From an uncultured Chloroflexia bacterium (GTDB taxonomy: Bacteria > Chloroflexota > Anaerolineae > Anaerolineales > Anaerolineaceae): a DNA stretch of 32,000 nucleotides. Below, in pieces: positions 10,091 to 31,595 of the stretch (the first letter of the stretch is position 1; the number at the start of each line of letters is the position of its first letter). The DNA lies in contig OY969938.1 in NCBI GenBank assembly GCA_963704755.1, positions 3,210,001-3,242,000 of the forward strand, in the 5' to 3' direction. The notes beneath the pieces were generated by a model. It saw only the letters and a program-made list of their open reading frames with translations, was not told the DNA's origin and did no database searches. Position numbers and translations under genes: made by a program.

Positions 10091-10147
10091 TCCGGAAAAT
10101 GAGGTGTTGGTGCTGGCAAAGCCAGCACCAACACCTCATTTTCCGGA
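10091..10147. repeat. Long perfect palindrome H1 (27-bp stem, AAA loop)
   Basis: TCCGGAAAATGAGGTGTTGGTGCTGGC-AAA-GCCAGCACCAACACCTCATTTTCCGGA, with no mismatches. Confidence 0.95.
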
Positions 10148-10159
10148 TCAGTCACTCCC

Positions 10160-10168
10160 TGCTATAAT
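10160..10168 (+). promoter_or_regulatory. Extended -10 promoter (TGCTATAAT) placing the TSS on the mntA ATG (leaderless)
   Basis: TGnTATAAT at 10160-10168 and ATG at 10175, 6 nt after the -10. There is no room for an SD. Confidence 0.55.
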
Positions 10169-10174
10169 TTATCT

Positions 10175-10660
10175 ATGGACGCAGCGGAATTGAGCGCAAA
10201 GTTGGAAGTTATCCTGGCGGATTTCCCGGAAATTGGCCTGGTTTACCTGTTCGGGTCGCGGGTCAGCGGGCAGGTAGGGCCGCTCAGCGATTATGATTTT
10301 GCCATCCTGACTGAAAACCCGCAAGACGAACTGGACCTGCAAGCCCGCTTCCAGTATGCCCTGGTGCGCATCTTGAATACCGACCGGGTGGATGTGGTGC
10401 TCCTGCAGCGAGCCCCGATCGAACTGGCCTACCGCATTATTGCCGATGGGAAATTACTCTATCAGAGGGATGTGTATACCCGGGTTGAATTCGAGGCGGA
10501 TACCCTCAGCCGATATGGGGATTATCTTCCGGTACTGCGTTCCCAACGGGAACAAATCCTGCGAGGAGACACGAATGACCGACGAATTCAGCGGTATAGA
10601 GAGGCGCTTGGACGAACTCGACGAACGCTTGGCCAGGATAAACTCCCTAAAAGGTCATAG
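10175..10660 (+). CDS. mntA: Nucleotidyltransferase-domain antitoxin (MNT, MntA-like)
   Basis: The minimal NTase motif LFGSRVSGQVGPLSDYDFAI matches GSxxxG...DxD. 161 aa. It overlaps the downstream HEPN gene by 86 nt. Confidence 0.8.
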   Translation: MDAAELSAKLEVILADFPEIGLVYLFGSRVSGQVGPLSDYDFAILTENPQDELDLQARFQYALVRILNTDRVDVVLLQRAPIELAYRIIADGKLLYQRDVYTRVEFEADTLSRYGDYLPVLRSQREQILRGDTNDRRIQRYREALGRTRRTLGQDKLPKRS

Positions 10661-11000
10661 CCAGGAAGAATTCCAGGATGATCCTTTTCTGCGTGATATT
10701 GTCGAACGCAATTTGGAAATCGCGGCCCAATGTTGTATCGATATCAGCCATCGACTGATACTGCTCGAAAACGCGCGAAAACCGGCAAATTATTACGAAG
10801 CTTTCTTGATCATGGGGGAAATTGGAGTGCTGCCGGCCGACTTCGCTCGCCGGATCGCGCCAATTGCCGGGCTGCGGAACATCTTGACTCACGAATACCT
10901 GGGCATCGATTGGGACCACGTTTATCGAAACCTGGAAAATATCGATGATCTGGCTACCTTTGCGGGTTATGTCCGCCAATGGCATTCAAAGGAGCCATAA
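10575..11000 (+). CDS. hepT: HEPN-domain toxin (DUF86, HepT-like RNase)
   Basis: The ORF track starts at 10392. I call ATG 10575 (MTDEFSGIERRL...) because GAGGAG lies at 10564-10569. The Rx4-6H motif is present as RNILTHEY. Confidence 0.8.
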   Translation: MTDEFSGIERRLDELDERLARINSLKGHSQEEFQDDPFLRDIVERNLEIAAQCCIDISHRLILLENARKPANYYEAFLIMGEIGVLPADFARRIAPIAGLRNILTHEYLGIDWDHVYRNLENIDDLATFAGYVRQWHSKEP

Positions 11001-11024
11001 AAAGCTTTCACCTGATGATTTTGA

Positions 11025-11081
11025 TCCCGAAAATGAGGTGTTGGTGCTGCCTTTGTCAACACCAACACCTCATTTTCGGGA
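11025..11081. repeat. Palindrome H2, a diverged paralogue of H1 (21-bp outer stem, imperfect apex)
   Basis: TCCCGAAAATGAGGTGTTGGTG...CACCAACACCTCATTTTCGGGA. The outer CCGG/CCGG of H1 is replaced by CCCG/CGGG, a compensatory pair. Confidence 0.9.
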
Positions 11082-11093
11082 TCAGTCACTCCC

Positions 11094-11102
11094 TGCTATA
11101 AT
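11094..11102 (+). promoter_or_regulatory. Second copy of the extended -10 promoter (TGCTATAAT), leaderless for fpg
   Basis: Same 28-nt ATCAGTCACTCCCTGCTATAAT context as at 10148-10168. The ATG at 11109 lies 6 nt after the -10. Confidence 0.55.
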
Positions 11103-11108
11103 CTATTT

Positions 11109-11945
11109 ATGCCAGAGCTACCTGAGCTCGAAGTGGTTCGTGAGGTGTTGCAGCGCCGGGTGATCGGGGATACGATTACGGCCGTGGAAGTCATCCCACC
11201 GGGCGGGCCGATCGTGATCCGCGACCTCACCCAGGTTGGTTTCGTTCCGGCCCTGGTTGGGGGGACCATTCAGGAGATATCGCGGCGGGGAAAATTCCTG
11301 ATCTTTGGCATGCAAGCTGAGACGGCGCCGCTTTACCTGGTGCTCAACCCTAAGTTGACCGGCCGCTTGCAGTTGGCAAGCGCAGGCGAAAAGCGGCGTG
11401 GCAAGACCCACGTGGTTTTTGGCCTGAGCAGCGGCAAACAGTTGCGCTACATCGATCAAAAGCAGATGGGCCAGCTTTATCTCACCCGCGACCTGGAGAT
11501 CGTGCCCGGGTTTGCCGGGATGGGCCCCGAGCCGCTGGATATCTCACTGGAAGAGTTCCGTGCGCGCTTGAAGCCCTTCCGCGGCGAGATCAAGGGGGTG
11601 CTCACCCGCGGGGAGTTTGTGGCCGGGATAGGCAACGCCTATGCCGATGAGATCCTGTGGGAGGCGCGCTTGCATCCCTATCGCAAGCGCACCCAGTTGA
11701 GCGCCGAGGAAGTCGCCCACCTGTACGAGGGCATGCGCACCACCTTGCTGAACGCGGTCGAGCAGGTGCGGGTGGAGATGGGCGAGAACATCCACCTCAA
11801 GCCGCGCGATTTTCTGGCCGTGCATATGAAGACCGGCGAGCCCTGCCCGCGCTGCGGTACGCCGATTTCGCTGGTGGGGGCTAACCAGCGCATCACCAAT
11901 TTTTGCCGCACCTGCCAGCCGGGCGGGTTGATCAAGGGGATGTGA
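11109..11945 (+). CDS. mutM: Formamidopyrimidine-DNA glycosylase (Fpg/MutM)
   Basis: N-terminal MPELPELEVV (catalytic Pro2/Glu3), H2TH region, and C-terminal zinc finger CPRCGTPISLVGANQRITNFCRTCQ. Confidence 0.93.
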   Translation: MPELPELEVVREVLQRRVIGDTITAVEVIPPGGPIVIRDLTQVGFVPALVGGTIQEISRRGKFLIFGMQAETAPLYLVLNPKLTGRLQLASAGEKRRGKTHVVFGLSSGKQLRYIDQKQMGQLYLTRDLEIVPGFAGMGPEPLDISLEEFRARLKPFRGEIKGVLTRGEFVAGIGNAYADEILWEARLHPYRKRTQLSAEEVAHLYEGMRTTLLNAVEQVRVEMGENIHLKPRDFLAVHMKTGEPCPRCGTPISLVGANQRITNFCRTCQPGGLIKGM

Positions 11946-13824: not shown

Positions 13825-14000
13825 GCAAGCGTAAATTCTTTCCCGTGGATCGAAGCGAGAGCAGTGATGCTGATTTGTAACAGCCCGGCCTGGTACCTGG
13901 AAAAACCAACTTTGAGCCGTTGGAATATGCCAAGCTGGAGCGGTTACGCCGATTATAAGGATTATAGGTCAGATATCACAGGGTGGACATGTAAACCTAC

Positions 14001-14031: not shown

Positions 14032-14071
14032 TTTGAATGTTTTTTACAACAATCCCATTTCGGAGCAACAA

Positions 14072-14881
14072 ATGAAAATTATTGGGGAGAAGATCAACGG
14101 CACCCGCAAGTTGGTGGGCAAGGCCATTGCCGAGCAAAATGCTGCCTTTATCCAAAACCTGGCCGTCAGGCAGGTCGAAGGCGGCGCCAACTGGTTGGAC
14201 GTCAATGCTGGCACTGCTCCTGAGCGCGAGGCCGATGATATGGTCTGGCTGGTGAAGCTTGTCCAGGAGGTCACCGACGTTCCTTTATGCCTGGACAGCG
14301 CCAATCCCACGGCGTTACGCCTGGCGATGAAGGAAGTCAAGCAAACACCGATGATCAACTCGATCAGCGGTGAGCCCAGCCGCCTGGAAGGCATTTTGCC
14401 GATCGTGGCCGAATTCCATTGCCCGGTCATTGCCCTGTGTATGGATGAAAATGGCATTCCGGTGACCACCGAGAAACGGCTGGAAGTCATCCGCAGCGTG
14501 ATTGCCAAAACCCGGGCAGCCAACATTCCCGATGAAATGGTCTATGTCGATCCGTTAGCCATGACGATCGCCACCAATACCAACGCCGGCCGGGTGATCT
14601 TCGATACCATCCGCGAAATTCGCCGGGAGTTCCCCGAGGCGCACATTAGCTGCGGCCTGAGCAACGTTTCGTTTGGCCTGCCGCTGCGGTCGCTGATCAA
14701 CCGCTCTTTCCTGGTGTTGGCCCTGGAGGCCGGCCTGGATACGGCCATCATCGACCCGAACGACCGGGATTTGCAGGCGGCGATGTACGCGGCCGAGATG
14801 CTGTTGGGCAAAGACCGCCATTGTTTGAACTACACCCGTGCTTATCGCGCCGGCCGGTTAGAGCACCCAGAACAAAAATAG
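14072..14881 (+). CDS. Methyltetrahydrofolate:corrinoid methyltransferase (pterin-binding domain, MT II/AcsE/MetH-module-like)
   Basis: The ORF-track start 14033 (TTG) lies upstream of the predicted TSS. ATG 14072 has GGAG 6 nt upstream. Motifs DSANP, MINSISGE and GLSNVSFG are typical of the pterin-binding TIM barrel. Confidence 0.85.
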   Translation: MKIIGEKINGTRKLVGKAIAEQNAAFIQNLAVRQVEGGANWLDVNAGTAPEREADDMVWLVKLVQEVTDVPLCLDSANPTALRLAMKEVKQTPMINSISGEPSRLEGILPIVAEFHCPVIALCMDENGIPVTTEKRLEVIRSVIAKTRAANIPDEMVYVDPLAMTIATNTNAGRVIFDTIREIRREFPEAHISCGLSNVSFGLPLRSLINRSFLVLALEAGLDTAIIDPNDRDLQAAMYAAEMLLGKDRHCLNYTRAYRAGRLEHPEQK

Positions 14882-14972
14882 CGCGGCGATTTAATCCCGC
14901 AATACTTCTGTACCATCGATGAAATAAAACCCTCTCGTATCCACATTTATGTTCGCGAATAAGGAGAAAAAC

Positions 14973-15605
14973 ATGTCGGAAAAGCTTGTAAATGCAATTG
15001 CCGAGATGGACGATGAGCAGGCGATAAACCTGGCCAAAGAACTGCTCGCCCAAGGCACCGATCCCATGGAAGTTCTGGCGGACTGCCGGAAGGCCATGGA
15101 AATTGTTGGCAAGCGTTTTGAGAACGGCGAATATTTCATCTCCGAGCTAATCCTGGCCGGCGAAATGCTCAAATCCATTTCAGCAGAAGTCAAACCCCTC
15201 GTCAAGCAGGAAGAAGAGGCCAAAACCGGGGGCAAGGTTTTGATTGGCACCGTCAAGGGTGACATTCACGATATTGCTAAAGATATCGTCGTGTTTATGC
15301 TGGACGTCAATGGCTTTGGGGTCAAAGACCTGGGAATTGATGTCTCCCCAGAGACCTTCGTCGAGGAAACAAAAAGCTACCAGCCGGATATCGTTGCGCT
15401 CAGCGGTTTCCTGACGCTGGCATATACCTCCATGAAAGAGACCGTAGACGCCCTTACGGCGGCCGGGCTGCGCGATAAAGTGAAGATCATGGTCGGCGGG
15501 GGTACGGTGGATGCCCAGGTTTGTGCTTTTGCAAATGCCGATGGTTGGGGCACGGATGCCATGACGGCTGTGAGTTTAGCCAAGCAGTGGACAGGAGCGA
15601 ACTGA
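14973..15605 (+). CDS. Corrinoid (B12-binding domain) protein, copy 2
   Basis: ATG 14973 is preceded by AAGGAG. DxHxxG is present as GDIHDIAK. It is about half identical by eye to copy 1 across the Rossmann domain. Confidence 0.88.
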   Translation: MSEKLVNAIAEMDDEQAINLAKELLAQGTDPMEVLADCRKAMEIVGKRFENGEYFISELILAGEMLKSISAEVKPLVKQEEEAKTGGKVLIGTVKGDIHDIAKDIVVFMLDVNGFGVKDLGIDVSPETFVEETKSYQPDIVALSGFLTLAYTSMKETVDALTAAGLRDKVKIMVGGGTVDAQVCAFANADGWGTDAMTAVSLAKQWTGAN

Positions 15606-15606
15606 G

Positions 15607-16896
15607 ATGACCGAGATGAGTTCAACAGTGGCAACGATTGATGCGGGCAAGAGCCCAGAGCAGTTGTTAAACGAGCGCATGGCGCGTTTTATGGCCGCAT
15701 TGCAGCTCAAAGAGCCCGATCGTGTTCCGATTATGTTGGGTATGGGCTATCTGCTGGCCGAATACGGTGGAATCACCCGCCAGGAACTGCAGGATAACCC
15801 GGAAAAGGCCCAGGAAGTACTCGAAAAAGCCGCCAAAGAATTTCAACCGGATATGGCGTTCGGTGTATTTGGCCTGGGGCCAAAGGCCAGCCTGGCCGTT
15901 GGCGATCAGATGACTAAATGGCCTGGCTACGGATTGGGCCCGAACGGCTCCTTCCAGTTCAATGAGCAGGAATTCATGAAAGGCGAAGATTACGATGCCT
16001 TTTTGGAAGATCCTTCGGACTGGGCTATTCGCACTTACCTGCCACGGGCCTTTAGTAAAATGGGCGGACTGGCACAGATCCCTCCGATGGGAATGTTCCT
16101 GTTCGGCTTCTACCACCTGGCGAACTTTGCTGCCTACGCTGCGCCTCAGGTGGTAGAAGCATTGAAAGCGTTGGGCGAGGCCGTCCAGGTGACCGCGGAA
16201 GGGTTGGGTCTCCTGATCAAATCGACCAACAGCCTGGCCGCCCTGGGCTTTGCCCCGCCTTTCTTTATGTCAGGCGCCTTGATCGAAGCACCTTTCGACT
16301 TTATGTCCGACACCCTGCGCGGTATGCGCGGCATCTTCCTGGATATGCACCGCCGCCCGGAGAAATTGATCGCAGCGCAGGAAAAGGTACTCAAATTCCA
16401 GGTGGAGTTTGCGATCAATCAGGCCAAAGCGACCAACATCCCCTACGCATTCATCCCGCTGCACCGTGGCTCAGACGGTTTCATGTCGCTGCCGCAGTTC
16501 GAGAAGTTTTACTGGCCGGGCCTGAAATCCATGATGGTGCAATTGATCGAGAACGGCATCACCCCGGCCGTGTTCTACGAAGGGGTATGGGATCAGCGCT
16601 TGAAATACCTGGCCGAACTGCCGGCGGGCAAATCGGTGGGCTGGTTCCAGAGCAGCGATATCTTCAAGGTCAAAGAGGTTCTGGGAGATACCCTGTGCAT
16701 CATGGGCGGCATGCCCAACTCGCTGCTGCAAGGCGGTACGGCCGAGCAGGTGCGCGAACGCACCCGTGAGCTGTGCGAGAAGGTCGGCAAGGGTGGCGGC
16801 TTCATCATGAGCACGGGCATCGGCGAACTGGAAGGCTGCGATCCGAAGCTGGTCAAAGTTTGGATGGACGCGACCAAAGAGTTCGGCGTATATTGA
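15607..16896 (+). CDS. URO-D-family methyltransferase (substrate:corrinoid methyltransferase, MT I-like)
   Basis: 429 aa, with the start overlapping the stop region of the corrinoid protein (AGGAG 8 nt upstream). It has uroporphyrinogen-decarboxylase-like TIM barrel features. It lacks the H-x-C zinc motif of MtaA/MtbA-type CoM methylases (the equivalent region reads IPLHRGSDG). Confidence 0.7.
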   Translation: MTEMSSTVATIDAGKSPEQLLNERMARFMAALQLKEPDRVPIMLGMGYLLAEYGGITRQELQDNPEKAQEVLEKAAKEFQPDMAFGVFGLGPKASLAVGDQMTKWPGYGLGPNGSFQFNEQEFMKGEDYDAFLEDPSDWAIRTYLPRAFSKMGGLAQIPPMGMFLFGFYHLANFAAYAAPQVVEALKALGEAVQVTAEGLGLLIKSTNSLAALGFAPPFFMSGALIEAPFDFMSDTLRGMRGIFLDMHRRPEKLIAAQEKVLKFQVEFAINQAKATNIPYAFIPLHRGSDGFMSLPQFEKFYWPGLKSMMVQLIENGITPAVFYEGVWDQRLKYLAELPAGKSVGWFQSSDIFKVKEVLGDTLCIMGGMPNSLLQGGTAEQVRERTRELCEKVGKGGGFIMSTGIGELEGCDPKLVKVWMDATKEFGVY

Positions 16897-16939
16897 TCTT
16901 TAAGAGCTGGCCTTTCCTTTTACCAGGCCAGCAATTGCT

Positions 16940-16980
16940 ACGTGCGGTCCTTTTTAGGGGAGGACCGCACGTTTGTTTTC
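16940..16980 (+). terminator. Intrinsic terminator after the MT I gene
   Basis: ACGTGCGGTCCT-(9 nt)-AGGACCGCACGT is followed by TTGTTTTC. It is preceded by a second hairpin, GCTGGCCT...AGGCCAGC (16906-16932). Confidence 0.6.
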
Positions 16981-17030
16981 CGCGAAGGTATTGAAAATGC
17001 CGCGATTCAACACGCTCTCTTCTATTCCGC

Positions 17031-17059
17031 TTGACAGCCGGCTTGCGGCGATCTACACT
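17031..17059 (+). promoter_or_regulatory. Promoter TTGACA-17-TACACT upstream of the activator gene
   Basis: TTGACA at 17031-17036 and TACACT at 17054-17059, read directly. Confidence 0.5.
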
Positions 17060-17106
17060 TCCTTGTAGTTTGTTCCCGGTTTAAGTCCCAAAGGATATGA
17101 CCCTGG

Positions 17107-18966
17107 ATGACCGACAAACCTTCAACGACAAAATTCACAGTAGATTTTGAGCCGCTGGGTAAGCGGGTGACCGTGCCACAGGGGGCGACGCTGCTGGATG
17201 CGGCCCGCCAGGCCGGGCTACCCCTGACCTCCGACTGCGGCGGAGCGGGAACCTGTGGCCAGTGCCTGGTTATTGCCCGTGAAGGGAGCAATGCCCTCAG
17301 TGCAGCTAACCTGGTCGAACAGGCTGTGCTCACCGCAGAGCAGCTTGGGGCGGGTTACCGCCAGGCCTGCCAGGCCGAGGTGCTGGGTGACGTAAAAATC
17401 GATGTGCCGGTGGCCTCGGTGATCACTGCCCAGCGTTTGCAGGTCGAATCGCGAGCTGCCGAGCCGGCTGTGCCCGGTACCTTCGACGACCTGGTCGTGC
17501 AGCCTTACCGGGTCAGCCTGGTGCCGGCCACCCTGGCCGACCTGCGCGGCGACCTGGAGCGGGTGTTGGATGCCCTGGCAGAGGAGTACCAGCTCAGCGG
17601 CTTGACGGCCGGACCGGCCGCGCTGCGGGCCCTTTCGCCCCTGCTGCGCCAACAGGATTGGCAGGTTTTGGTATTAGTCCGCGGGCGGGAGATCGTGGGC
17701 TTCCTGGCCCCGGGTGCGCGGCCGCTGGGCCTGGCGGTGGACCTGGGGACGACCAAGGTGGCTGCTTACCTGGTGGACCTGGTGAGCGGGGAAACCCTGG
17801 CCGCCGAAGGCCGGCCCAACCCGCAGATCGGTTACGGCGAAGACTTGATCAGCCGCCTGGCCTATGCCATCCGCAAGACGGACGGCGAAAGCACCCTGTC
17901 CGGGGCGGTCTACACCACCCTGGGCGAACTGGCTCGGGAGCTGGCCGGGCGGGCCGGCGAACCGGTGGAGCATATCGCTGAAGCCTGTATTGTGGGCAAC
18001 ACCGCCATGACCCATTTGCTATTGAATTTGCCCATATACCAGTTAGCCCTGGCGCCCTACATCCCAGCCACGGCCATGCCGCAGGAAGTCCGCACGGCGG
18101 AGATGGGCCTGAATTTCGTCAGCGACGCGCGCGTGCACGTGCCGGCCTGCGTGGCCGGTTTCGTCGGGGCCGACCACGTGGCTATGGTCCTGGCCAGTGA
18201 TATCGACCGCGAGAACCGCACGGTATTGGGGATCGACATTGGCACCAACACCGAGATCGTCCTTTCCCGTGCAGGGACTTCCCGTTTGGTCTCGCTTTCC
18301 TGCGCGTCCGGGCCGGCCTTCGAAGGCGCGCACATTCACGCCGGGATGCGCGCCGCAGCCGGGGCCATCGAGCGGGTCTGGCTGGATGGCGGCAGCCCGA
18401 CCGTGCAGACGATCGACCATGCGCCGGCTGTGGGCATTTGCGGTTCGGGTATCATCGATACGGTGGCCGAGCTGCACCGCCTGGGTATCATCAACATGCG
18501 CGGGCGGTTTCAAGCTGGGGCGGCCGGCGTGCGGCCGGGCCACGGCGAACTGGAATATTTGCTGGTCCCGGCTGAACAAAGCGGCAGCGGCGAGGACATC
18601 ACCATCACCCAGCACGACGTGGACGAAATCCAGTTGGCCAAAGGCGCCATCATGGCCGGCATCCGCGTGCTGCTGGAGGTGTGTGGGCTGACCGTCGAGG
18701 ACCTGGACGAGGTTATCCTGGCCGGGGCTTTTGGCACTTACCTGAATCTGGAGACGTCCATTGCCATCGGGCTCTTACCGGATCTGCCCCTGGAGCGTTA
18801 CCGCCAGGTGGGCAATGCCGCCGGAGATGGCGCGCGCCAGATCTTAGTCTCGCGGGCCGCGCGCGAACGGGCGGTCGAAATTGCCCGGCGGATCGAATAT
18901 GTGGAGCTGACGATTTACCCGGGCTTTGCCCGTATTTATGCTAAATCCATGTTACTTAACGGTTGA
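17107..18966 (+). CDS. Reductive activator of corrinoid-dependent enzymes (RACE/RACo-like: 2Fe-2S ferredoxin + ASKHA ATPase, COG3894)
   Basis: The N-terminal plant-type ferredoxin motif is CGGAGTCGQC. The remainder (LAVDLGTTKV..., GIDIGTNTE...) has the actin-like ATPase fold (DUF4445). Confidence 0.85.
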   Translation: MTDKPSTTKFTVDFEPLGKRVTVPQGATLLDAARQAGLPLTSDCGGAGTCGQCLVIAREGSNALSAANLVEQAVLTAEQLGAGYRQACQAEVLGDVKIDVPVASVITAQRLQVESRAAEPAVPGTFDDLVVQPYRVSLVPATLADLRGDLERVLDALAEEYQLSGLTAGPAALRALSPLLRQQDWQVLVLVRGREIVGFLAPGARPLGLAVDLGTTKVAAYLVDLVSGETLAAEGRPNPQIGYGEDLISRLAYAIRKTDGESTLSGAVYTTLGELARELAGRAGEPVEHIAEACIVGNTAMTHLLLNLPIYQLALAPYIPATAMPQEVRTAEMGLNFVSDARVHVPACVAGFVGADHVAMVLASDIDRENRTVLGIDIGTNTEIVLSRAGTSRLVSLSCASGPAFEGAHIHAGMRAAAGAIERVWLDGGSPTVQTIDHAPAVGICGSGIIDTVAELHRLGIINMRGRFQAGAAGVRPGHGELEYLLVPAEQSGSGEDITITQHDVDEIQLAKGAIMAGIRVLLEVCGLTVEDLDEVILAGAFGTYLNLETSIAIGLLPDLPLERYRQVGNAAGDGARQILVSRAARERAVEIARRIEYVELTIYPGFARIYAKSMLLNG

Positions 18967-18986
18967 ATTGATCCTAGAGGAATTTT

Positions 18987-19658: not shown

Positions 19659-19711
19659 GAGGTTTCGTGTGTTTTTGTGCCACTTTGTGGCACAAAAACA
19701 CACGAAACCTC
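19659..19711. repeat. Long perfect palindrome H3 (25-bp stem, TTT loop)
   Basis: GAGGTTTCGTGTGTTTTTGTGCCAC-TTT-GTGGCACAAAAACACACGAAACCTC, starting 4 nt after the DUF1638 stop. Confidence 0.95.
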
Positions 19712-19735: not shown

Positions 19736-19760
19736 AACCTGTGCAGCCAGGTTGTTTTTT
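19736..19760 (+). terminator. Canonical intrinsic terminator of the methyltransferase operon
   Basis: AACCTG-TGCAGC-CAGGTT is followed by GTTTTTT. It overlaps an alternative ACAGGT-GAAA-ACCTGT hairpin (19727-19742). Confidence 0.55.
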
Positions 19761-24300: not shown

Positions 24301-24540
24301 AATTGGATCTATGGCTGCCTGGGGACAGGTGCAGGTTGCCTTGAGCTGGTTTTGGGAGTTGGTAGAGAATGCCACCCGGTAATCGTCATTTTTGCCTTCG
24401 ACCCGACAAACTGCGTGTTCCGCGTGATATTGCAGGTCAGTGACCCGCCCATCGCGATAATACTGTATCCCGCGTTGGATCGTTTTATAGTCGGTGCGGT
24501 TGTTAAAGGGAAAGGCATCCAGTTGATTGGCAGTGATCAT
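21331..24540 (-). CDS. SWIM zinc-finger + SNF2-family helicase/ATPase
   Basis: 1069 aa. SWIM CxCx(n)CxH is present as [14 protein letters not shown]. SNF2_N motifs include [11 protein letters not shown] and [13 protein letters not shown]. The Helicase_C motif is [33 protein letters not shown]. Confidence 0.9.
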   Translation of the reverse strand: [1069 protein letters not shown]

Positions 24541-24830: not shown

Positions 24831-24882
24831 AATCTGTAGATCAAAAAAGATGCCGGATGGCATCTTTTTTGATCTACAGATT
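24831..24882. repeat. Long perfect palindrome H6 (24-bp stem, GGAT loop); the apex doubles as a bidirectional terminator
   Basis: AATCTGTAGATCAAAAAAGATGCC-GGAT-GGCATCTTTTTTGATCTACAGATT. The inner GATGCC/GGCATC stem is flanked by A6/T6 tracts. Confidence 0.9.
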
Positions 24883-25317: not shown

Positions 25318-25517
25318 TGTTCTTCCTCCCCAAAGATAAATACTTGCTCAATGGTCCGCCCGAAAACTTTGGCGATGTTGTAGGCCAGGAATATGGACGG
25401 GTTATATTTGCCGTTTTCCAGGGAGATGATGGTCTGGCGGGTAACGCGGCAGCGCTCGGCCAGCTCTTCCTGGGTCAGGCGGTTTTCCTTGCGAAGCTCT
25501 TGAATATGGTTTTTCAT
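25314..25517 (-). CDS. XRE-family helix-turn-helix transcriptional regulator (67 aa)
   Basis: HTH_3 signature [36 protein letters not shown] upstream. Confidence 0.88.
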
Positions 25518-25582: not shown

Positions 25583-25629
25583 TAGAGGAGTTTGGCCACA
25601 GATGGGCACGAATGGACACAGATAAATTT

Positions 25630-25676
25630 AAAATAGGGTGTATGCCGGGGCTTTGCCCCGGCATACACCCTATTTT
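25630..25676. repeat. Perfect palindrome H7 (22-bp stem, TTT loop), terminator-compatible at the end of the cob operon
   Basis: AAAATAGGGTGTATGCCGGGGC-TTT-GCCCCGGCATACACCCTATTTT, 20 nt downstream of the cobU stop. Confidence 0.9.
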
Positions 25677-25695: not shown

Positions 25696-26271
25696 CTATT
25701 TAAACTGCATGGGCAGGCCGGCGACCAGGAAATAGACTTCGTCCGCCTGGCGGGCCAGCTCCTGGTTGGCGCGGCCGATCAGGTCGCGATAGGCGCGACC
25801 CAGGTCGTAGGCCGGGACCAGCCCCAGGCCGACCTCGTTGGAAACCACCAGGATGGTCACGTCCTGGCTGCGGACGTACTCGACCAGGGCGGCGATATCG
25901 GCGCGGACGGCTGCTTCGATGGCTTCGTCGAACGGGTCCGCGGAAGGCGGGCCGAAGGGATCGTCCAGCGGGGCGGAGGCTTCCATCAGGTAATTCGAGA
26001 TCAACACCGTCAGGCATTCCAGCAAGATGACGTCCACATCCGCGTCGAGTGCGCGGATGGCCTGGGCTACCCGGCGCGGCGCTTCGAGCGTCTGCCAGGA
26101 CGCCGGGCGGGATGCCCGGTGATTTTGGATGCGCAGGCGCATCTCGTCGTCTTTTGCTTCGGACGTGGCGACGTACAGCACCCGCTCACCGCCCCATTCG
26201 CGGGCTTTTTGCTCGGCGAAATTGCTCTTGCCGCTGCGCGCACCGCCCAAAATCAAAACCAGTTTTCCCAC
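25696..26271 (-). CDS. cobU: Bifunctional adenosylcobinamide kinase / adenosylcobinamide-phosphate guanylyltransferase
   Basis: GTG start with GAGGTG upstream. P-loop GGARSGKS. Length (191 aa) and sequence are typical of CobU/CobP. Confidence 0.9.
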   Translation of the reverse strand: MGKLVLILGGARSGKSNFAEQKAREWGGERVLYVATSEAKDDEMRLRIQNHRASRPASWQTLEAPRRVAQAIRALDADVDVILLECLTVLISNYLMEASAPLDDPFGPPSADPFDEAIEAAVRADIAALVEYVRSQDVTILVVSNEVGLGLVPAYDLGRAYRDLIGRANQELARQADEVYFLVAGLPMQFK

Positions 26272-26331
26272 GCTTCACTCACCTCAATTTCAGGAATTAT
26301 TGTAACTGCTCAGCCCAGCGGGGATGAAACC

Positions 26332-26385
26332 CGAATTTGATGTACGTGCGGGGGCTGCTCTGCCCCCGCACGTACATCAAATTCG
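26332..26385. repeat. Perfect palindrome H8 (24-bp stem, 6-nt loop)
   Basis: CGAATTTGATGTACGTGCGGGGGC-TGCTCT-GCCCCCGCACGTACATCAAATTCG. Confidence 0.95.
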
Positions 26386-26481
26386 AGAACTTATTAACAG
26401 GAGCCTGAGTAGTTACGAATTATTTATCAGAGCCAGAAAAGATTATAAGCTACAGATGGCACGGATAAACACAGATTATGC

Positions 26482-26538
26482 CCTCGAATTATGGTTGGAT
26501 GAAGGCGCAACGCGCCTTCATCCAACCATAATTCGAGG
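26482..26538. repeat. Perfect palindrome H9 (27-bp stem, AAC loop)
   Basis: CCTCGAATTATGGTTGGATGAAGGCGC-AAC-GCGCCTTCATCCAACCATAATTCGAGG, 7 nt from the cobS stop. Confidence 0.95.
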
Positions 26539-26544
26539 TGCTCA

Positions 26545-27273
26545 TCAATGGATCGTAAACACAATTAAAACCAGCACTTCGGTCAGCTCGCAGATGGCGC
26601 CGTAGCTGTCGCCGGTCAGGCCGGGGAGTAGGTGCATCATGTAGCCGGCAAAGGCGAACAGCACCACTGCGGCCAGGATCATGGCCAGCCCGCCCAGCCA
26701 GCCGGCCACCAGCATGGCCACAACCAGCGAGAAGAGCGTGCCGAAGATCACCTGGGTCCAGCCGGTCTTGTCTTTCATGTCGCGGGCCAGGCCTTTTTCG
26801 CGGGCATAAGGGAAGAAGAAGATTGCCAGCGCAATGGCCCAGCGCCCCAGCATAGGCGCCAGCAGGAATGCGGCCAGGCGGTTGTCCAGGCTGCTGATGG
26901 CAAACAGTTTGGTGAACAACAGCAAAATGCCGGCGGCCAAGCCAAAGGCGCCTACCCGTGAATCCTTCATGATCTCCAGGCGCCGCTCGGGGGTAAAGCC
27001 GCCGAACAGGCTGTCGAAGATATCCAGGAAGCCGTCGAAGTGCAGCGCACGGGTGAGGATCAGCCAGGCGGTGACCACCAGAACGGCGCACAGATAGACA
27101 GGCAGAAACAGGCGCAAGACGCTGTGCAAGCCGTATAACACCCCGCCCAGCACCAGGCCGACCAGGGGGTAAAAGGCCACCGAACGGCCCATTTCTTCGG
27201 GGCTAAAGCGCCGGCGAACGACCGAGGGGAAAACGGTCAGGAATTGAAAAGCGGCCAGGAGTGAAATCATCAT
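26545..27273 (-). CDS. cobS: Adenosylcobinamide-GDP ribazoletransferase (cobalamin synthase)
   Basis: The ORF track extends to 27591, overlapping cobT. The real start is ATGATG at 27273/27270 (MMISLLAAFQFLTVFP...). The protein is polytopic membrane with CobS-typical FHFDGFLD-like (LHFDGFLD) and DSYG motifs. Confidence 0.88.
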   Translation of the reverse strand: MMISLLAAFQFLTVFPSVVRRRFSPEEMGRSVAFYPLVGLVLGGVLYGLHSVLRLFLPVYLCAVLVVTAWLILTRALHFDGFLDIFDSLFGGFTPERRLEIMKDSRVGAFGLAAGILLLFTKLFAISSLDNRLAAFLLAPMLGRWAIALAIFFFPYAREKGLARDMKDKTGWTQVIFGTLFSLVVAMLVAGWLGGLAMILAAVVLFAFAGYMMHLLPGLTGDSYGAICELTEVLVLIVFTIH

Positions 27274-27308
27274 CGGTCCGATGGGCTCAAATCTAATGGT
27301 GAGCGGCA

Positions 27309-27339
27309 GGCCATCTTTGCGCGAAGCGCAAAGATGGCC
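27309..27339. repeat. Perfect palindrome H11 (14-bp stem, GAA loop) between cobT and cobS
   Basis: GGCCATCTTTGCGC-GAA-GCGCAAAGATGGCC. Confidence 0.9.
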
Positions 27340-27358
27340 TAAACTTAGCCGGCCGGGA

Positions 27359-28405
27359 TCAGTTCTCGGAAACGCCGGCTTCGTCGAATGTGGCCATTTC
27401 GGCCAGAACTTTGCAGGCAACTTCGGCCAGACTGATGCCGATAGCAGCTCCGGTGCCCTCGCCCAGGCGCATGCGCATGTCCACCAGCGGCTCCAGACCG
27501 AGCCAGGCGACCATGGCGGAGTGGCCGTATTCCTGCGAGCGGTGGGCCGAGATGAGGTACGGCCGCACGGCCGGGGCAATCGCCACGGCAATCATGGCGG
27601 CGGCAGTCGAGATGAAGCCATCCACCATGACCGGTTTGTGCTGGGCGGCCGCGCCGAGCATTACGCCGGCCAGCCCGCCGATCTCGAACCCGCCGACTTT
27701 GGCGAGGATGTCCAGCCCGTCTTGCGGATTGGGTTGGTTAACTTCCAGGGCTTTTTCGATCACGCTGATTTTGTGTTGTAAACCTTCGTCGTTCAAACCG
27801 GTACCGCGGCCGGCAATGCGGGCCGCGGTTTCGCCGGTCAGCACGCAGGCGATGGCGGCCGACGGGGTGGTGTTGCCGATACCCATATCACCGGTGCCGA
27901 CGATGTCCAGCCCGTGGGCGATTTCATCTTCCACCACGCTGATCCCGGCTTCGACCGCCTGGATGGCCTGTTCGCGGGTCATGGCCGGGCCGCGTGAAAT
28001 GCTCTGGGTGCCATAGGCCACTTTCTTGATGATCAAACCTTCATGGGCAGGCATATCTACCGCCACGCCCATATCGACGACCACCACGCGGGCGCCAATG
28101 TGGCGGGCCAGGGCGTTGATGGCTGCGCCGCCGTGCAAGAAGTTGGCGACCATCTGGGGAGTCACTTCCTGCGGGTAAGCGCTGACTCCGTCGGCGACGA
28201 CGCCGTGGTCACCGGCCATAGTAATGATGACCTTGTCGTGGATAGCCGGGATATTTTTTCCGGTGATGCCGGCGATCTGGATCGAGAGGTCTTCCAGGCG
28301 GCCCAGGCTGCCGGCCGGTTTGGTGAGCGAATCCTGGCGGGCACGGGCAGCCGCCATAGCGTTTTCATCTAATGGACTGATGCGGGCAACGAGCGAGTTG
28401 ATCAT
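27359..28405 (-). CDS. cobT: Nicotinate-nucleotide--dimethylbenzimidazole phosphoribosyltransferase
   Basis: The ORF track starts at a TTG (28426). ATG 28405 (MINSLVARISPLDE...) has AAGGAG 5 nt upstream. CobT-typical LTKPAGSLGRLE and GDMGIGNTT are present. Confidence 0.9.
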   Translation of the reverse strand: MINSLVARISPLDENAMAAARARQDSLTKPAGSLGRLEDLSIQIAGITGKNIPAIHDKVIITMAGDHGVVADGVSAYPQEVTPQMVANFLHGGAAINALARHIGARVVVVDMGVAVDMPAHEGLIIKKVAYGTQSISRGPAMTREQAIQAVEAGISVVEDEIAHGLDIVGTGDMGIGNTTPSAAIACVLTGETAARIAGRGTGLNDEGLQHKISVIEKALEVNQPNPQDGLDILAKVGGFEIGGLAGVMLGAAAQHKPVMVDGFISTAAAMIAVAIAPAVRPYLISAHRSQEYGHSAMVAWLGLEPLVDMRMRLGEGTGAAIGISLAEVACKVLAEMATFDEAGVSEN

Positions 28406-28465
28406 GGTACTCCTTTTCGATAACAATAGTTTGGGGATGGGGAACTATAGGAATGGGTAATTTTT

Positions 28466-28501
28466 AATCTGCGGTGCCTGCATTTGCAGGCACCGCAGAT
28501 T
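28466..28501. repeat. Perfect palindrome H10 (16-17-bp stem) between btuD and cobT
   Basis: AATCTGCGGTGCCTGCA-TT-TGCAGGCACCGCAGATT. It shares the outer AATCTG...CAGATT with H6. Confidence 0.9.
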
Positions 28502-28511
28502 GTTCGACTTT

Positions 28512-29375
28512 CTATATCAGGCCGTTTATTTTGGGGTTTTTCGCGGGCTCGCCTTCCGCTATGAACATGGGATATTTGGAAGGGGTGGCGGCCGGTGAGG
28601 CCGAAAGGCCATCCGGTACGACCAGGGGGGTGCCGTACACCGGGTGAGGGACCACGATAGTGGGGATGTGATAGACCGCGGCCAGGTTTTCGCTGGTGAG
28701 TACGTCGCCGGGGTTACCAAGCGCGTATACGCTCCCCTCGGAAAGCAACGCGATCCGGTCGGCATACAGGCCGGCCTGGTTGAGATCGTGGATCACCATC
28801 AGCACGGCCCGGTTGGTCTCGACCGCCAGGTTGCGGACCAGGTTCAAAATTCGTGACTGGTGTTCGATATCCAGGTAGGAGGTTGGCTCGTCCAACAGCA
28901 GAACCGGTGTATCCTGGGCCAGCGCGCGGGCTAAAAGCACGAGCTGCTGTTCCCCGCCAGAAAGCTGGCCAATTCTGCGCTCGGCCAGGTCAGCGATGCC
29001 GACCTGTTCCAAAGCGGCGCGGACACATTTATGGTCCAGCGCGCTGGATTGGCCCAGCCAACTGAGATAGGGTGTCCGGCCCAGCAAGACGGTCTGGTAC
29101 ACAGTAAAGGTATCGGGAAGCGCATGCGCCTGGGGCACCACAGCCATAAAACGCGCCCGCTGGCGGAAATCCATGACGGTGAGGTCCTGGCCATTGACCA
29201 GGACCGTGCCCGAGCACGGTTTGAGAACCCCGCTGGTCGTCCGGATCAGGGTGGATTTTCCCGTCCCGTTCGGGCCAACGACCGCCAGCACTTGCCCGGG
29301 GAGAATGTCCAGGTTGAGGTCGTGTAAGACCAGGCGATCGTTATACCCTACGGAAAGCGATTGGATTTGAAGCAT
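28512..29375 (-). CDS. btuD: ABC transporter ATP-binding protein (FepC/BtuD type)
   Basis: Walker A GPNGTGKST, signature LSGGEQQ and Walker B LLLDEPTS. The cobalamin assignment rests on the riboswitch and cob context. Confidence 0.8.
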   Translation of the reverse strand: MLQIQSLSVGYNDRLVLHDLNLDILPGQVLAVVGPNGTGKSTLIRTTSGVLKPCSGTVLVNGQDLTVMDFRQRARFMAVVPQAHALPDTFTVYQTVLLGRTPYLSWLGQSSALDHKCVRAALEQVGIADLAERRIGQLSGGEQQLVLLARALAQDTPVLLLDEPTSYLDIEHQSRILNLVRNLAVETNRAVLMVIHDLNQAGLYADRIALLSEGSVYALGNPGDVLTSENLAAVYHIPTIVVPHPVYGTPLVVPDGLSASPAATPSKYPMFIAEGEPAKNPKINGLI

Positions 29376-29400
29376 AGCAAGGTTCCTTTTTCAGAACAAC

Positions 29401-30432
29401 TCAGTGGACACCAGAACCGGTCCGGCGCAGTACCCATAGAAAGAACGGCGCGCCGGCCAGGGCAGTCACAATGCCGACCGGTAATACCTGCGGCGAAAGA
29501 ACAACCCGCGCCAGAATATCGGCGAGTAATAGGGCGATAGCGCCTCCCAGGATCGAAAAGGGGATCAGCGAACGGTAGTCCGGGCCATGGATCATGCGGA
29601 CCACGTGTGGCACGATCAGGCCGATAAAGCCGATCAAGCCGGAAAAGGCCACGGCCGATGCGGCGGTCAGGGATGCGGCCAGAATCAGGATGAACTTGGC
29701 CCGTTCCACATGGATACCCAACTGCTGGGTTTGCTCTTCACCGAACTGCAAGACATTGAGGATGTGCCCGGAAAGGGTCAGCAGCACCAATCCCAGGGCC
29801 ACGTACGGCAGCATGGCGACCACTGGGTCCCAGCCCCCCTGGGTCGTGCCGCCGCCCAGCAGCCAGGAAAGCGCATGCTGCAGGTCGTTTTGCGAGCGCA
29901 GCATGAGGAACGAGGTCAAAGCAGAGGCGAAAGAGCTGATCGCCACACCTGCCAGGATCAGAGCGGTGGTGGGGAGGGCGTTGCCGACCCGGGCCAGTTG
30001 ATAAACCAGGAAGACCGTGAGCAGAGCCCCCAGGAAGGCCGCGGCCGGGATGGTATACATTCCCAGGACAGAATCGGACCAGTGCAGGGCGATGGCGAGC
30101 ACCGCGCCCAGCCCGGCCCCGGAGGCCACGCCGATCAAATAGGGATCGGCCAGGGGGTTACGGAACACGCCTTGATAAACTGCCCCGCTGCCCGCCAGGG
30201 CAGCCCCGGTCAGTGCGATCAGGAAGGCGTGCGGTAAGCGGATTTGGTAGATGATCGCCGAGAAAGTGGATGGCCAGTCCTGGTGAACAATGCCCCCGAG
30301 GCCCGCAAAGAGGATGCGAACCGAAGTTGCGGGAGGAATGAAGACGCTGCCGATGCCGACGCTAAGGATCAGCGCCAGCACCAGCAGGGCAATCATCAGG
30401 ATCAAAGACCGGACATGAAAGGATCTGGTCAT
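29401..30432 (-). CDS. btuC: FecCD-family ABC permease (BtuC type)
   Basis: The ORF-track start (30588) overlaps the binding-protein gene. ATG 30432 (MTRSFHVRSLILMIALL...) lies 13 nt after the btuF stop. Polytopic, FecCD-like. Confidence 0.8.
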   Translation of the reverse strand: MTRSFHVRSLILMIALLVLALILSVGIGSVFIPPATSVRILFAGLGGIVHQDWPSTFSAIIYQIRLPHAFLIALTGAALAGSGAVYQGVFRNPLADPYLIGVASGAGLGAVLAIALHWSDSVLGMYTIPAAAFLGALLTVFLVYQLARVGNALPTTALILAGVAISSFASALTSFLMLRSQNDLQHALSWLLGGGTTQGGWDPVVAMLPYVALGLVLLTLSGHILNVLQFGEEQTQQLGIHVERAKFILILAASLTAASAVAFSGLIGFIGLIVPHVVRMIHGPDYRSLIPFSILGGAIALLLADILARVVLSPQVLPVGIVTALAGAPFFLWVLRRTGSGVH

Positions 30433-30445
30433 CGGTTGGGGTCGA

Positions 30446-31471
30446 TTATTTGAACAAATCCGGGTGGAGTAGTTTGGCCATGGCTTCCAGGCCATCGACC
30501 AGGCGAGGCCCAGGCCGGCTGACCAGGTTGTCGTCGAAGGTGTACACCTGGTTCTGCTTGACGGCGGTAATGCCATCCCAACCGGCACGGGAGGTCACCA
30601 TCTCGGGGGTCATGGCCCCCCAGGTGGCATCGCCGAGCAGGATAATGTCGGGGTTCTCGACGATCAGGTCTTCGGTGCTGATCTGGGCCCAATCACCCGA
30701 GAGGGATGCGCCCGCGTTACGGCCGCCGGCCATGTTGATGACCGTATCGACGAACGAGCCCGGGCCGGCCGTCCAGGGCGCGGTCGGGTCGGTGCCATCC
30801 AATTCGTAGAAGACCAGGGGTTTCTGGTCATCGCTGAGCGAAGCCAGGGTCGTTTCGACGGCGTCCACACGGGCTTTGTAGCCAGCGACCAGCGCCTGGA
30901 CGGTGTTGGTGTGGCCGGTCAACTGGGCCACCAGGTCCAAATCATCGTACAGGCCGTTGAAGTCGGTCGGGTTGGGCACGACGAAAATGGTCAGGCCCAG
31001 GTCTTGGACAGCCTTGATCTGGTCGGCGGAGGTCAATTCGGCCGCCAGCACCAGGTCGGGCTGCAAGGCCAGGATGGCTTCCGTGTTCAAATCACTGTAA
31101 CCGCCGCCAATATCGGTGGCTGCGGCGGCTGCATCCGGGTAGTCCGAATACAAATCGCGGCCAACAACCTGGTCACCGGCGCCTACCGCAAAGAGGATTT
31201 CGGTCACGGACGGGGCTAACGAGACGATCCGCTGGGGCGCAGTGTCGAGGGTGACCTGCCGGCCGGCGGCATCCGTAGCGGTAAAAGGCCAGGCGGGTGT
31301 TTCAGTGGGACTGGGCAGTTCGGTGGGGGAGGCAGCGACGGTGGGTTCAGCCGTGGGCGCCGTTGTGGCTGCCGGTTCTATGGCGACTGTGGGGGCCGGG
31401 GTGGCCTGAGTGGCGCAGGCAGAGAGCAGAACGATCAGGATCAGGCCGGTAATGACGAATTTCTTGAACAA
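30446..31471 (-). CDS. btuF: Periplasmic-binding-protein family 8 lipoprotein (BtuF-like cobalamin/corrinoid binding)
   Basis: TTG start with GGAGG 9 nt upstream. Lipobox LLSAC plus an Ala/Thr/Pro linker. PBP type-2 (Peripla_BP_2) features include RIVSLAPSVTEILFAVGAG. Confidence 0.8.
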   Translation of the reverse strand: MFKKFVITGLILIVLLSACATQATPAPTVAIEPAATTAPTAEPTVAASPTELPSPTETPAWPFTATDAAGRQVTLDTAPQRIVSLAPSVTEILFAVGAGDQVVGRDLYSDYPDAAAAATDIGGGYSDLNTEAILALQPDLVLAAELTSADQIKAVQDLGLTIFVVPNPTDFNGLYDDLDLVAQLTGHTNTVQALVAGYKARVDAVETTLASLSDDQKPLVFYELDGTDPTAPWTAGPGSFVDTVINMAGGRNAGASLSGDWAQISTEDLIVENPDIILLGDATWGAMTPEMVTSRAGWDGITAVKQNQVYTFDDNLVSRPGPRLVDGLEAMAKLLHPDLFK

Positions 31472-31540
31472 TGGTGCGTTCCTCCAGAATAGGGTTGAGT
31501 TAGGTGGTTTTTGTATCTACTCAAGCTTGTGCAAAAAGTT

Positions 31541-31595
31541 CCCGAATTTGAGGTGTCTGTGGGGACGAAGTCCCCATAGACACCTCAAATTCGGG
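31541..31595. repeat. Long palindrome H12 (26-bp stem with one G:T/A:C position, GAA loop) in the operon leader
   Basis: CCCGAATTTGAGGTGTCTGTGGGGAC-GAA-GTCCCCATAGACACCTCAAATTCGGG. It lies between the riboswitch terminator and the btuF RBS. Confidence 0.9.

Follow-up and report, generated by a model that had tools for sequence, protein, structure and literature searches.

Why should the gaps between the genes of a bacterial chromosome be occupied by one long, perfect palindrome after another? The question is raised by a 32,000-nt stretch of contig OY969938.1 (assembly GCA_963704755.1, positions 3,210,001 to 3,242,000; the whole of it is called the window below) from an uncultured Chloroflexia bacterium of the Anaerolineae, in which an earlier note, made by reading the letters, had singled out twelve palindromes, H1 to H12. 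[quoted passage not shown] A MITE is in itself a known kind of element, here in a lineage for which a literature search found no description of MITEs or of long palindromes. Less ordinary are the strictly perfect, co-varying core with its flipping loop, and insertions into stop/start junctions that leave both genes intact.

The palindromes and a family of miniature transposons

An inverted-repeat scan of the window recovered all twelve palindromes to within 1-3 nt of where they had been placed, with stems of 15-28 bp and loops of 2-7 nt. Ten are free of mismatches, as had been claimed, and a single mismatch occurs in each of the remaining two, H2 and H12. When the window was shuffled thirty times with its dinucleotides preserved, perfect stems never reached 12 bp and at most one fell in the 10-11 bp range, against ten of at least 15 bp in the real sequence; the folding energies, computed for the hairpin only, range from -27 to -54 kcal/mol. 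Three of the four sequence modules that the palindromes were said to share occur far above chance: CCSGAAWWTGAKGTG has 10 matches against 0.96 expected (0/100 shuffles have as many), GTGTGTTTTT of H3 and H4 has 4 against 0.04, and the 19-nt apex GTGCTGGCAAAGCCAGCAC of H1 and H5 has 2 against 0. The fourth, AATCTGYRG as a module of H6 and H10, has to be given up: its 4 matches against 1.0 expected are equalled in 2/100 shuffles, and because every palindrome is counted twice they are not significant. The proposal of a dispersed, modular family, as opposed to a set of independent terminators, is borne out, and the stems are indeed longer than termination requires.

The shared arm CCCGAAWWTGAGGTG proves to be the core part of a MITE of about 111 bp. 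A scan of metagenomes with the pattern CCCGAAWWTGAGGTG, 8-38 nt, CACCTCAWWTTCGGG returned at least 120 contigs with at least 112 distinct copies and at least 73 distinct cores, many of them at contig ends. Alignment of the flanks gives the unit as GTRACTRCTCAGSC, about 14 nt, the core, about 14 nt and GSCTGAGYAGTYAC; it is mostly 108-117 bp long (range 108-131), non-coding and without an open reading frame (ORF). The commonest core, present in 51/121 among the matches listed, is palindromic over 55 nt, with 26 bp of perfect stem around a loop of 3 nt, and is laid out as CCCGAATTTGAGGTG, a variable 11 bp, the loop and the complement. The 14-bp terminal inverted repeats GTRACTRCTCAGSC bound H8 and 38 unique full-length copies among the matches listed; in the latter, the adjoining 8-bp flanks are identical in 19/38 and differ by one mismatch in 8/38, against 0/38 with two mismatches or fewer when the flanks are read with a 3-nt offset. 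The duplicated 8-bp targets are A/T-rich. Terminal inverted repeats, a duplication of fixed length, a small, non-coding, multi-copy unit and presence/absence polymorphism (below), by which a MITE is recognized structurally, are all found here. There is also variation within the family: some copies carry extra small hairpins (CCCCCACACTTCGGGGG), one is coreless (L112 2485-2554; L numbers denote the loci fetched for comparison), and a second subfamily combines the same terminal repeats with a different core, CCGCAAAAAAGGTGTGYATGTGGGGC. By rough ORF calls, the copies among the matches listed lie in 20 divergent, 32 tandem and 9 convergent intergenic regions, which is the pattern of an intergenic colonist and not of a terminator.

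Direct evidence for mobility comes from filled and empty sites. The contig L187 carries a 131-nt copy at a place where L202, 92% identical to it over about 3.4 kb, is without the element. At the empty site of L202, CATCATTCATGACCATGCAG, the TGA of the upstream gene overlaps the ATG of the downstream one. The filled site of L187 reads CATCATTCATAAAAA, the element and CATGAAAATGCAA, and the duplicated CATRAAAA gives the upstream gene its stop and the downstream gene its ATG. In a second pair, the site is filled in L184, with the duplication AAACGAGG, and empty in L120. L187 appears to come from the Anaerolineae, one of its proteins having 70-72% identical relatives named Anaerolineae, Anaerolineaceae or Chloroflexi. 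On insertion the element duplicates an A/T-rich 8-bp target, and because the target is duplicated the element can enter even an overlapping stop/start junction, sparing the upstream stop and the downstream start, so that neither gene is inactivated. Such tolerated insertion may explain why the elements of the window lie so close to gene ends.

A pair of genomes with 87.5% identity have insertions of two subfamilies, with shared terminal repeats and different cores, in the same two intergenic regions (L130 1-98 and 1695-1845; L176 90-201 and 1772-1890). The insertion points differ by about 25 nt, and the insertions are therefore independent; these intergenic regions appear to have been targeted repeatedly. 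Core swapping at a fixed site was considered for this pair and discarded, the subfamilies being inserted about 25 nt apart or beside flanks that cannot be aligned.

The terminal repeats point to the probable source of mobility, as they match those of the ISBst12 group of the IS66 family. ISDge4 of Deinococcus geothermalis, a member of that group, codes for a single 449-aa transposase; its terminal repeats read GTGACTACTCAGCA and GTAACTGCTCAGCA, and it makes a direct repeat of 8 bp (PMC12898284). A copy on the Geobacillus plasmid pHTA426, spanning GTATCTATTCAGCC to GGCTGAATAGTTAC, codes for a PF03050/PF13005/PF20042 transposase, has GTATCTATTCAGCC and GTAACTATTCAGCC as its terminal repeats and is bordered by a perfect 8-bp duplication (GACGAGTT). 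Environmental ISBst12-like elements of about 1.6 kb have the exact ends GTAACTGCTCAGCC...GGCTGAGCAGTTAC, with the stop TGA of the transposase inside the right-hand terminal repeat GGCTGAGCAGTTAC (L208, L210, L212-L216); the short-read contigs of these elements join the flanks of different copies, and their duplications are unreadable. Like the ISBst12 group (ISBst12, ISDge4 and the ISGka4-family copy of pHTA426), the MITE has ends that start with GTAACT or GTGACT and read GTRACTRYTCAGC(A/C), with 13-14 of 14 terminal-repeat positions identical, and an 8-bp target duplication. Unlike that group, the window elements are only about 111 bp long, are without a transposase gene and show no similarity past the outermost 14-16 nt or so. 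Since the ends match, we infer that a DDE transposase of that kind (PF03050), encoded elsewhere, acts in trans; an autonomous ISBst12-type partner supplying it, and so mobilising the element, would be bounded by GTAACTGCTCAG. The window does indeed lack a transposase and a RAYT (REP-associated tyrosine transposase, discussed below) in a Pfam scan of its ORFs, as the earlier note had stated, which is no puzzle because MITEs are mobilised in trans.

In most respects the element is a typical bacterial MITE. Like Correia/NEMIS of Neisseria, RUP of Streptococcus pneumoniae, ERIC and MITEAba12, it is non-coding, about 100 bp long, multi-copy and intergenic; it has terminal inverted repeats, a target-site duplication of fixed length and presence/absence polymorphism, it is predicted to form a long hairpin when transcribed, and its terminal repeats are common to an autonomous insertion-sequence family. 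It differs from those listed in its host, a member of the Anaerolineae, and in its interior, which is not the remnant of a deleted insertion sequence but a perfect hairpin of 26 bp; the central 11 bp of this hairpin differ from copy to copy and yet stay Watson-Crick paired, and its loop occurs in both orientations.

The palindromes of the window were ranked with R1, a covariance model made from 24 metagenome copies plus H8 and H12 and run with filters off; on this model, unrelated long palindromes in relatives score 17-43 bits, which is the range of a generic hairpin. The window holds four clear MITE copies, H8, H12, H1 and H2 (Table 1), which by score are its only secure members, H8 and H12 having themselves been in the training alignment. 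H8 lies between the 3' end of cobS and the start of cobU, has the terminal repeats GTAACTGCTCAGCC and GCCTGAGTAGTTAC and its core palindrome at 26332-26385, and shows on its two sides a target-site duplication of 8 bp, GAATTATT, which is perfect (26294-26301 and 26417-26424). H12 sits in a 5' untranslated region, past the terminator that belongs to a riboswitch and before a btuF-like gene; it has an intact terminal repeat on the right, GCTTGAGTAGATAC, and a decayed one on the left, GGAACTGCTAAG, has lost the left subterminal segment by deletion, and has an ambiguous target-site duplication (AAACTACC versus AAACCACC, with a 2-nt offset). H1, between a pair of divergent genes (GH2, starting at 10041 on the minus strand, and MNT, starting at 10175 on the plus strand), is an internally shortened copy that keeps stubs of the terminal repeats, GTAACTAT (10082-10089) and CAGTCAC (10149-10155). 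H2 begins 22 nt past the HepT stop, ends 25 nt before the start of fpg and has the right-hand stub GTCAC only; relative to H1, it shows a compensated G/C swap and a roughly inverted loop. H4, H7 and H9, all borderline by score, are probably diverged relatives of the family: over 33 nt the H7 core matches MITE cores in L185 and L159 with 94% identity, and the arm CCTCGAATTATGGTTG of H9 resembles the family arm. H3 and H5 are tied to the family through shared segments only, H3 having GTGTGTTTTT in common with H4 and H5 having an apex identical over 19 nt to that of H1. H6, H10 and H11 stay unassigned and may be other subfamilies, decayed copies or host hairpins.

Several observations weigh against assigning the whole set to this family. 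H3, H5, H6, H10 and H11 score no better on R1 than generic hairpins and are without homologues in the fetched loci, where BLAST found none for H9 either. A clean target-site duplication is seen in the window at H8 only, that of H12 being ambiguous and H1 and H2 having none. The window and the other fetched Anaerolineae and metagenome DNA (about 1.8 Mb) yielded no transposase: tblastn with the pHTA426 transposase gave nothing significant in the window and 205 other loci (best E = 0.24), and a search of the terminal repeats for long-range pairs with duplications gave nothing significant for an autonomous element. A scan for an IS66 motif was negative as well, but this motif is absent from the ISBst12-type transposase of pHTA426 too, and the scan is hence uninformative here. 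The link to ISBst12 is drawn from identical terminal repeats and equal duplication length, and a partner within the same genome is presumed. As to the spread of the family, 81 Anaerolineae loci around SNF2 homologues (1.28 Mb) hold no copy of it, matches to the pattern and to R1 staying there within the generic-hairpin range, and plasmid, phage and viral-contig collections gave no MITE copy. Rfam 15 has no family that matches the hairpins at its gathering score, the sole match being a cobalamin riboswitch, and at E up to 1 the hairpins give only sub-threshold look-alikes of microRNA precursors.

For annotation, the family means that long perfect palindromes in Anaerolineae genomes and metagenome-assembled genomes (MAGs) are to be labelled as copies of a mobile element and not as terminators or regulatory RNAs. 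The habit of the copies of lying at contig ends suggests that the elements may themselves cause fragmented assemblies.

Terminators and other alternatives

The alternative that survives best, though we judge it unlikely, is that the hairpins are the lineage's own gene-end signals, that is, hairpin-only or bidirectional terminators or 3'-end stabilisers selected in place, and that the MITE merely resembles or carries such a signal. It draws on a further point against the transposon family: nine of the 12 hairpins lie 4-22 nt past a stop codon, a closer spacing than insertion at random between genes would produce and one that suits a terminator-like role. Moreover, H4 and H5 amount to one hairpin per gene between convergent genes, H7 has the AAAA...TTTT shape of a textbook bidirectional terminator, H5 and H7 pass a scan for a hairpin plus U-tract, and many perfect 14-17-bp hairpins of the A-tract/GC-stem/T-tract kind occur in Anaerolineae relatives. 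The resemblance to bidirectional intrinsic terminators extends to the GC-rich apex, the A-tract and T-tract that extend the stem (in H7 and the inner parts of H1, H2 and H6) and the site behind stop codons. However, most copies are without a 3' U-tract, have stems two to four times longer, and occur also in 5' untranslated regions and divergent gaps. In the window the U-tract is missing in 10/12, the scan being passed only by H7 (on both strands) and H5 (on the plus strand), whereas all three ordinary short terminators that we use as comparators from the same window pass it, and one of these stands directly after H3. The T-tract is on the 5' side in H3 and H4, H12 follows the riboswitch terminator in a 5' untranslated region, H1 has divergent genes on its two sides, and H8 has terminal repeats and a target-site duplication. 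Copies of the family are as common in divergent as in convergent regions (20 versus 9 among the matches listed).

The hairpins are also missing from the orthologous site in relatives. At the 3' end of the DUF1638 gene, relatives with about 70% identical RACo have either a short, imperfect terminator (L203) or nothing (L204, L205), no perfect palindrome of 12 bp or more being found in the 31 kb of these three loci, and in L081 there is a different 16-bp palindrome 126 nt away. The earlier note had held that ordinary short terminators at such sites, with long stems being assembly artefacts, would speak against its palindrome family. The first part holds to some extent at this site, where relatives have an ordinary short terminator or nothing; the second fails, because the element is met again and again in independently assembled contigs, at least 120 of them.

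The closeness to stop codons of the hairpins that fall outside the family leaves room for what may be a secondary gene-boundary role. Once transcribed, an element would form a hairpin of -27 to -54 kcal/mol a short way past a stop codon, and it may secondarily stop transcription or protect 3' ends; if the hairpins do terminate or stabilise transcripts, operon structure would be rewired in an abundant and hard-to-culture group. One can go further and picture a self-perfecting palindrome module, flipped by template switching (below), that Anaerolineae have co-opted as a portable, orientation-independent gene-boundary insulator, that is, a terminator or 3'-end protector. We offer this as a tentative idea, conceivable rather than probable. 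If true, it would explain why hairpins that differ in sequence and are not related follow nearly all stop codons of the right-hand 22 kb at a distance of 4-22 nt, it would cover the hairpins inside the normally operonic cobT-cobS-cobU, and it would explain the outward -10 box of H1 and H2 that ends at the ATG of the next gene.

Much less survives of the idea that these are REP (repetitive extragenic palindromic) or REPIN-type elements, mobilised as single strands by a RAYT (an IS200/IS605-like tyrosine transposase) encoded elsewhere, which we consider very improbable. REPs are 20-40-bp imperfect palindromes with a conserved GTAG or CGTC tag, and their intergenic, palindromic and multi-copy nature and their location mostly downstream of genes are traits seen here too (PMC3733652). 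The likeness extends to the mosaic make-up of REPs and bacterial interspersed mosaic elements (BIMEs), which likewise lie mostly near gene 3' ends, to the long hairpins of REPINs, and to a GTAG inside many right-hand terminal repeats (GAGTAGTTAC). This GTAG, however, is not conserved, GAGCAGTTAC being equally common (GAGTAG and GAGCAG alternate), and does not stand at the palindrome head: the palindromes begin with CCCGAA, GAGGTT, AATCTG and others, and not with the GTAG or CGTC at one end that tags a REP. REPs are without terminal inverted repeats, whereas the elements here have them, along with much longer perfect stems. The terminal repeats are, furthermore, identical to those of a DDE insertion-sequence group, and no Y1 (HUH) transposase domain is present in the window ORFs scanned. 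RAYT/IS200-type elements are not known to duplicate their target site. Both the terminal inverted repeats of 14 bp and the target-site duplications of 8 bp contradict a REP or REPIN and are the hallmarks of a DDE-transposon MITE, and the REP/BIME-like reading of the earlier note is to be replaced accordingly.

Scarcely more credible are palindromic operators for dimeric regulators, or some other DNA-level host signal such as a recombination or nucleoid-protein site. The perfect two-fold symmetry would fit an operator, H1 and H2 reach into the -35 region of a TATAAT promoter, and a repeated 28-nt motif stands beside H7 and H9, but stems of 50-60 bp far exceed operator length, a variable core with a conserved structure argues for pairing over sequence recognition, and the insertion polymorphism, together with the terminal repeats and target-site duplications identified for part of the set, speaks against such a signal. 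Assembly or library artefacts such as fold-back chimeras, which the perfect stems and the many metagenome copies at contig ends might bring to mind, can be dismissed as next to impossible, given that at least 120 contigs of independent JGI and ENA assemblies, and a 4.87-Mb contig that carries the window proteins, hold the element between differing flanks, that target-site duplications adjoin the copies, which stand between intact genes, and that a contig-end location is expected of a multi-copy repeat. Integron attC sites were rejected on inspection: RYYYAAC/GTTRRRY ends and an integrase are both absent, and the genes, which lie on both strands, belong to core metabolism.

Perfect stems and inverted loops

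If the palindromes are transposon copies, what keeps their arms complementary? We compared 55 distinct 55-nt cores from the matches listed and, in addition, H12. Overall, 98.6% of the cells are paired. The outer 15 bp of each arm are fixed by the search pattern and invariant by construction. At core positions 16-26, the 11 bp that are free to vary, 66 cells are changed on both sides, 10 on one side (giving G-U) and 20 are unpaired. At least 22 additional Watson-Crick pair types are seen, many of them reachable only via transversions on both arms. The observed covariation is reached in 0/500 shuffles, and sliding the partner drops the pairing to 21-47%. The loop, read against the asymmetric flanks, is GAA in 8 and TTC in 5, and GCA in 2 and TGC in 1. 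The supposition that some process keeps the arms complementary is thus well founded, the core changes being nearly all double-sided and the loop flipping its orientation.

Template switching homogenises the arms of inverted repeats and inverts their spacers (PMC8604942; PMC7202029). Switching between the two arms would restore complementarity here and at the same time invert the loop, and from the patterns in the cores we take template switching in replication to be the best-supported mechanism for the perfect, flipping core. It would be akin to quasipalindrome correction (the Ripley model; E. coli and yeast), in which mismatches between arms are made complementary and spacers inverted (PMC8604942, PMC7202029). 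Quasipalindrome correction is known from single mutational hotspots and scattered inverted repeats, whereas here it would be recurrent across a whole transposon family. Apart from the fixed outer arms, two points tell against reading too much into these counts: template switching is deduced from sequence patterns, and the covariation tallies cells and not events, so that the amplification of perfect master copies would inflate it. Selection for the hairpin and such amplification probably contribute as well, and are not separable with these data. The family nevertheless offers a replicated data set for concerted arm evolution together with spacer inversion, with at least 112 copies, at least 73 cores and both loop orientations, arm homogenisation having so far been studied mostly at single hotspots.

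Features of the window and its neighbourhood

Table 1. Palindromes, associated repeats and comparator terminators, with positions counted from the first letter of the window; scores are those of the covariance model R1
Feature	Position	Strand	Description
H1	10082-10155		Truncated MITE copy; perfect 28-bp palindrome 10090-10148; 55 bits
88-nt direct repeat	10090-10177	+	Second copy 11024-11111, 89% identity
H2	11022-11089		Copy of H1; 28-bp stem, 1 mismatch; 52 bits
Comparator terminator	16940-16979	+	Canonical; 12-bp stem then TTTGTTTT; after URO-D-like gene
H3	19659-19711		Perfect 25-bp palindrome, 4 nt past DUF1638 stop; 29 bits
Comparator terminator	19736-19760	+	Canonical; AACCTGTGCAGCCAGGTT + GTTTTTT; 25 nt after H3
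H4 element	21155-21256		Perfect 27-bp palindrome 21172-21228; 44 bits over full length
H5	21273-21313		Perfect 19-bp palindrome, 18 nt past SNF2 stop (minus-strand gene); 25 bits
H6	24831-24882		Perfect 24-bp palindrome, 19 nt past stop of 138-aa ORF; 18 bits
28-nt motif	25596-25623 and 26450-26476	-	ATCTGTGTyyATyCGTGCC(c)ATCTGTrG; after H7 and H9 on gene strand
H7	25630-25676		Perfect 22-bp palindrome, 20 nt past cobU stop; 39 bits (borderline)
H8	26302-26416		Complete 115-bp MITE; 95 bits, E = 6e-22
H9	26482-26538		Perfect 27-bp palindrome, 7 nt past cobS stop; 46 bits (borderline)
H11	27308-27340		Perfect 15-bp palindrome, 19 nt past cobT stop; 14 bits
H10	28466-28501		Perfect 17-bp palindrome, 11 nt past ABC ATPase gene stop; 24 bits
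H12	31513-31610	-	MITE copy, nearly complete; 76 bits
Comparator terminator	31619-31644	-	Canonical short intrinsic terminator; CCTGCCGCGTGGCAGG + TTTTTTGTTT; expression platform of cobalamin riboswitch

The gene content of the window, assigned with Pfam, begins with a minus-strand locus for sugar uptake and GH2, which reaches to 10041, followed by MNT/HepT (10175-11000), fpg (11109-11945) and, at 14033-19655, a corrinoid methyltransferase cluster that includes RACo and DUF1638. The end of a sigma-factor-like gene is at 21150, an SNF2 helicase is encoded on the minus strand at 21331-24540, and cobU, cobS, cobT and a btuFCD-like transporter occupy 25696-31471, also on the minus strand; these cob/btuFCD-like genes are preceded by a cobalamin riboswitch at 31700-31868 (Rfam match). 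Proteins from MAGs of Anaerolineae and Chloroflexota share no more than 65% identity with the SNF2 protein, and the best named matches of the RACo homologues are likewise Anaerolineae or Chloroflexota.

H1 and H2 each head a copy of an 88-nt direct repeat, in which the hairpin is followed by TCAGTCACTCCCTGCTATAAT, 6-7 nt and an ATG, with a -10-like TATAAT box that ends at the start codon. Two unrelated genes, MNT and fpg, start exactly where the stretches beyond the hairpin (10149-10177 and 11085-11111) end, which suggests that the tail of the repeat is a duplicated promoter, predicted to give leaderless transcripts. The T-tract of H3 and the A-tract that follows it on the 3' side both lie within its stem. 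The palindrome of H4 is nested in an outer inverted repeat, CAGTTCGGGATAAGG...TTATCCCGAA, and begins 22 nt past the stop of the sigma-factor-like gene. Its outer shell includes the 20-mer AACGTCAGTTCGGGATAAGG (21149-21168), which recurs identically in an Anaerolineales MAG locus (L064 13421-13440), likewise downstream of an SNF2 gene, and almost identically in another one, L037 21328-21347; the conserved shell suggests a second inverted-repeat element family. The 28-nt motif has two copies only, each just upstream of a promoter-like sequence and neither with a counterpart in the other loci compared, and may be a subfamily-specific tail or the site of a regulator.

Some candidate assignments in the window did not hold. 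Neither terminal repeats nor a target-site duplication were found at H6. A candidate duplication at H10 runs into coding sequence, and 21% of random positions give such a match. H12 was considered as the terminator of the riboswitch and rejected, since the riboswitch has a canonical terminator of its own and H12 lies beyond it.

The 5' arm is G+T-rich (0.60-0.81) and the 3' arm A+C-rich in H1-H5, H8 and H12, a bias found on both strands because the sequences are palindromic. A similar theme, TTTG(A/T)G-GTGT-TTTG-CGG, is seen in palindromes of other Anaerolineae loci (L025, L029, L081).

The left 10 kb of the window had been described as free of the family. This is right for perfect palindromes; the otherwise hairpin-free sugar locus does contain a possible decayed, coreless pair of terminal repeats at 3573-3633 (GTATCTGCTCAGAT...GGCCGAGCAGAAAC, flanks TGGGAAGG/TGGAAGG). 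A second possible pair of the same kind lies at 13877-13947 (GTAACAGCCC...GAGCGGTTAC, flanks GCTGATTT/GCCGATTA). In other Anaerolineae MAG loci there are, in addition, short elements with unrelated interiors bounded by GTAACTGC...GCAGTTAC (L019 22459-22620, L020 32-212, L051 16428-16482 and 1887-2646); a cluster of hairpin repeats is present in L051 as well.

Two minor features of the window concern neither the palindromes nor the MITE. Between a lacI-like gene and a GH2 mannosidase gene, at 6602-7483, there are three tandem repeats of about 241-250 nt that are 89-92% identical to each other; no consistent ORF in any frame and no Rfam match was found for them. Between H7 and the 138-aa ORF, at 25320-25517 on the minus strand, lies a gene for an XRE-family helix-turn-helix protein of about 66 aa, which is missing from the list of ORFs of 80 aa and has a strong promoter, TTGACA-17-TATACT.

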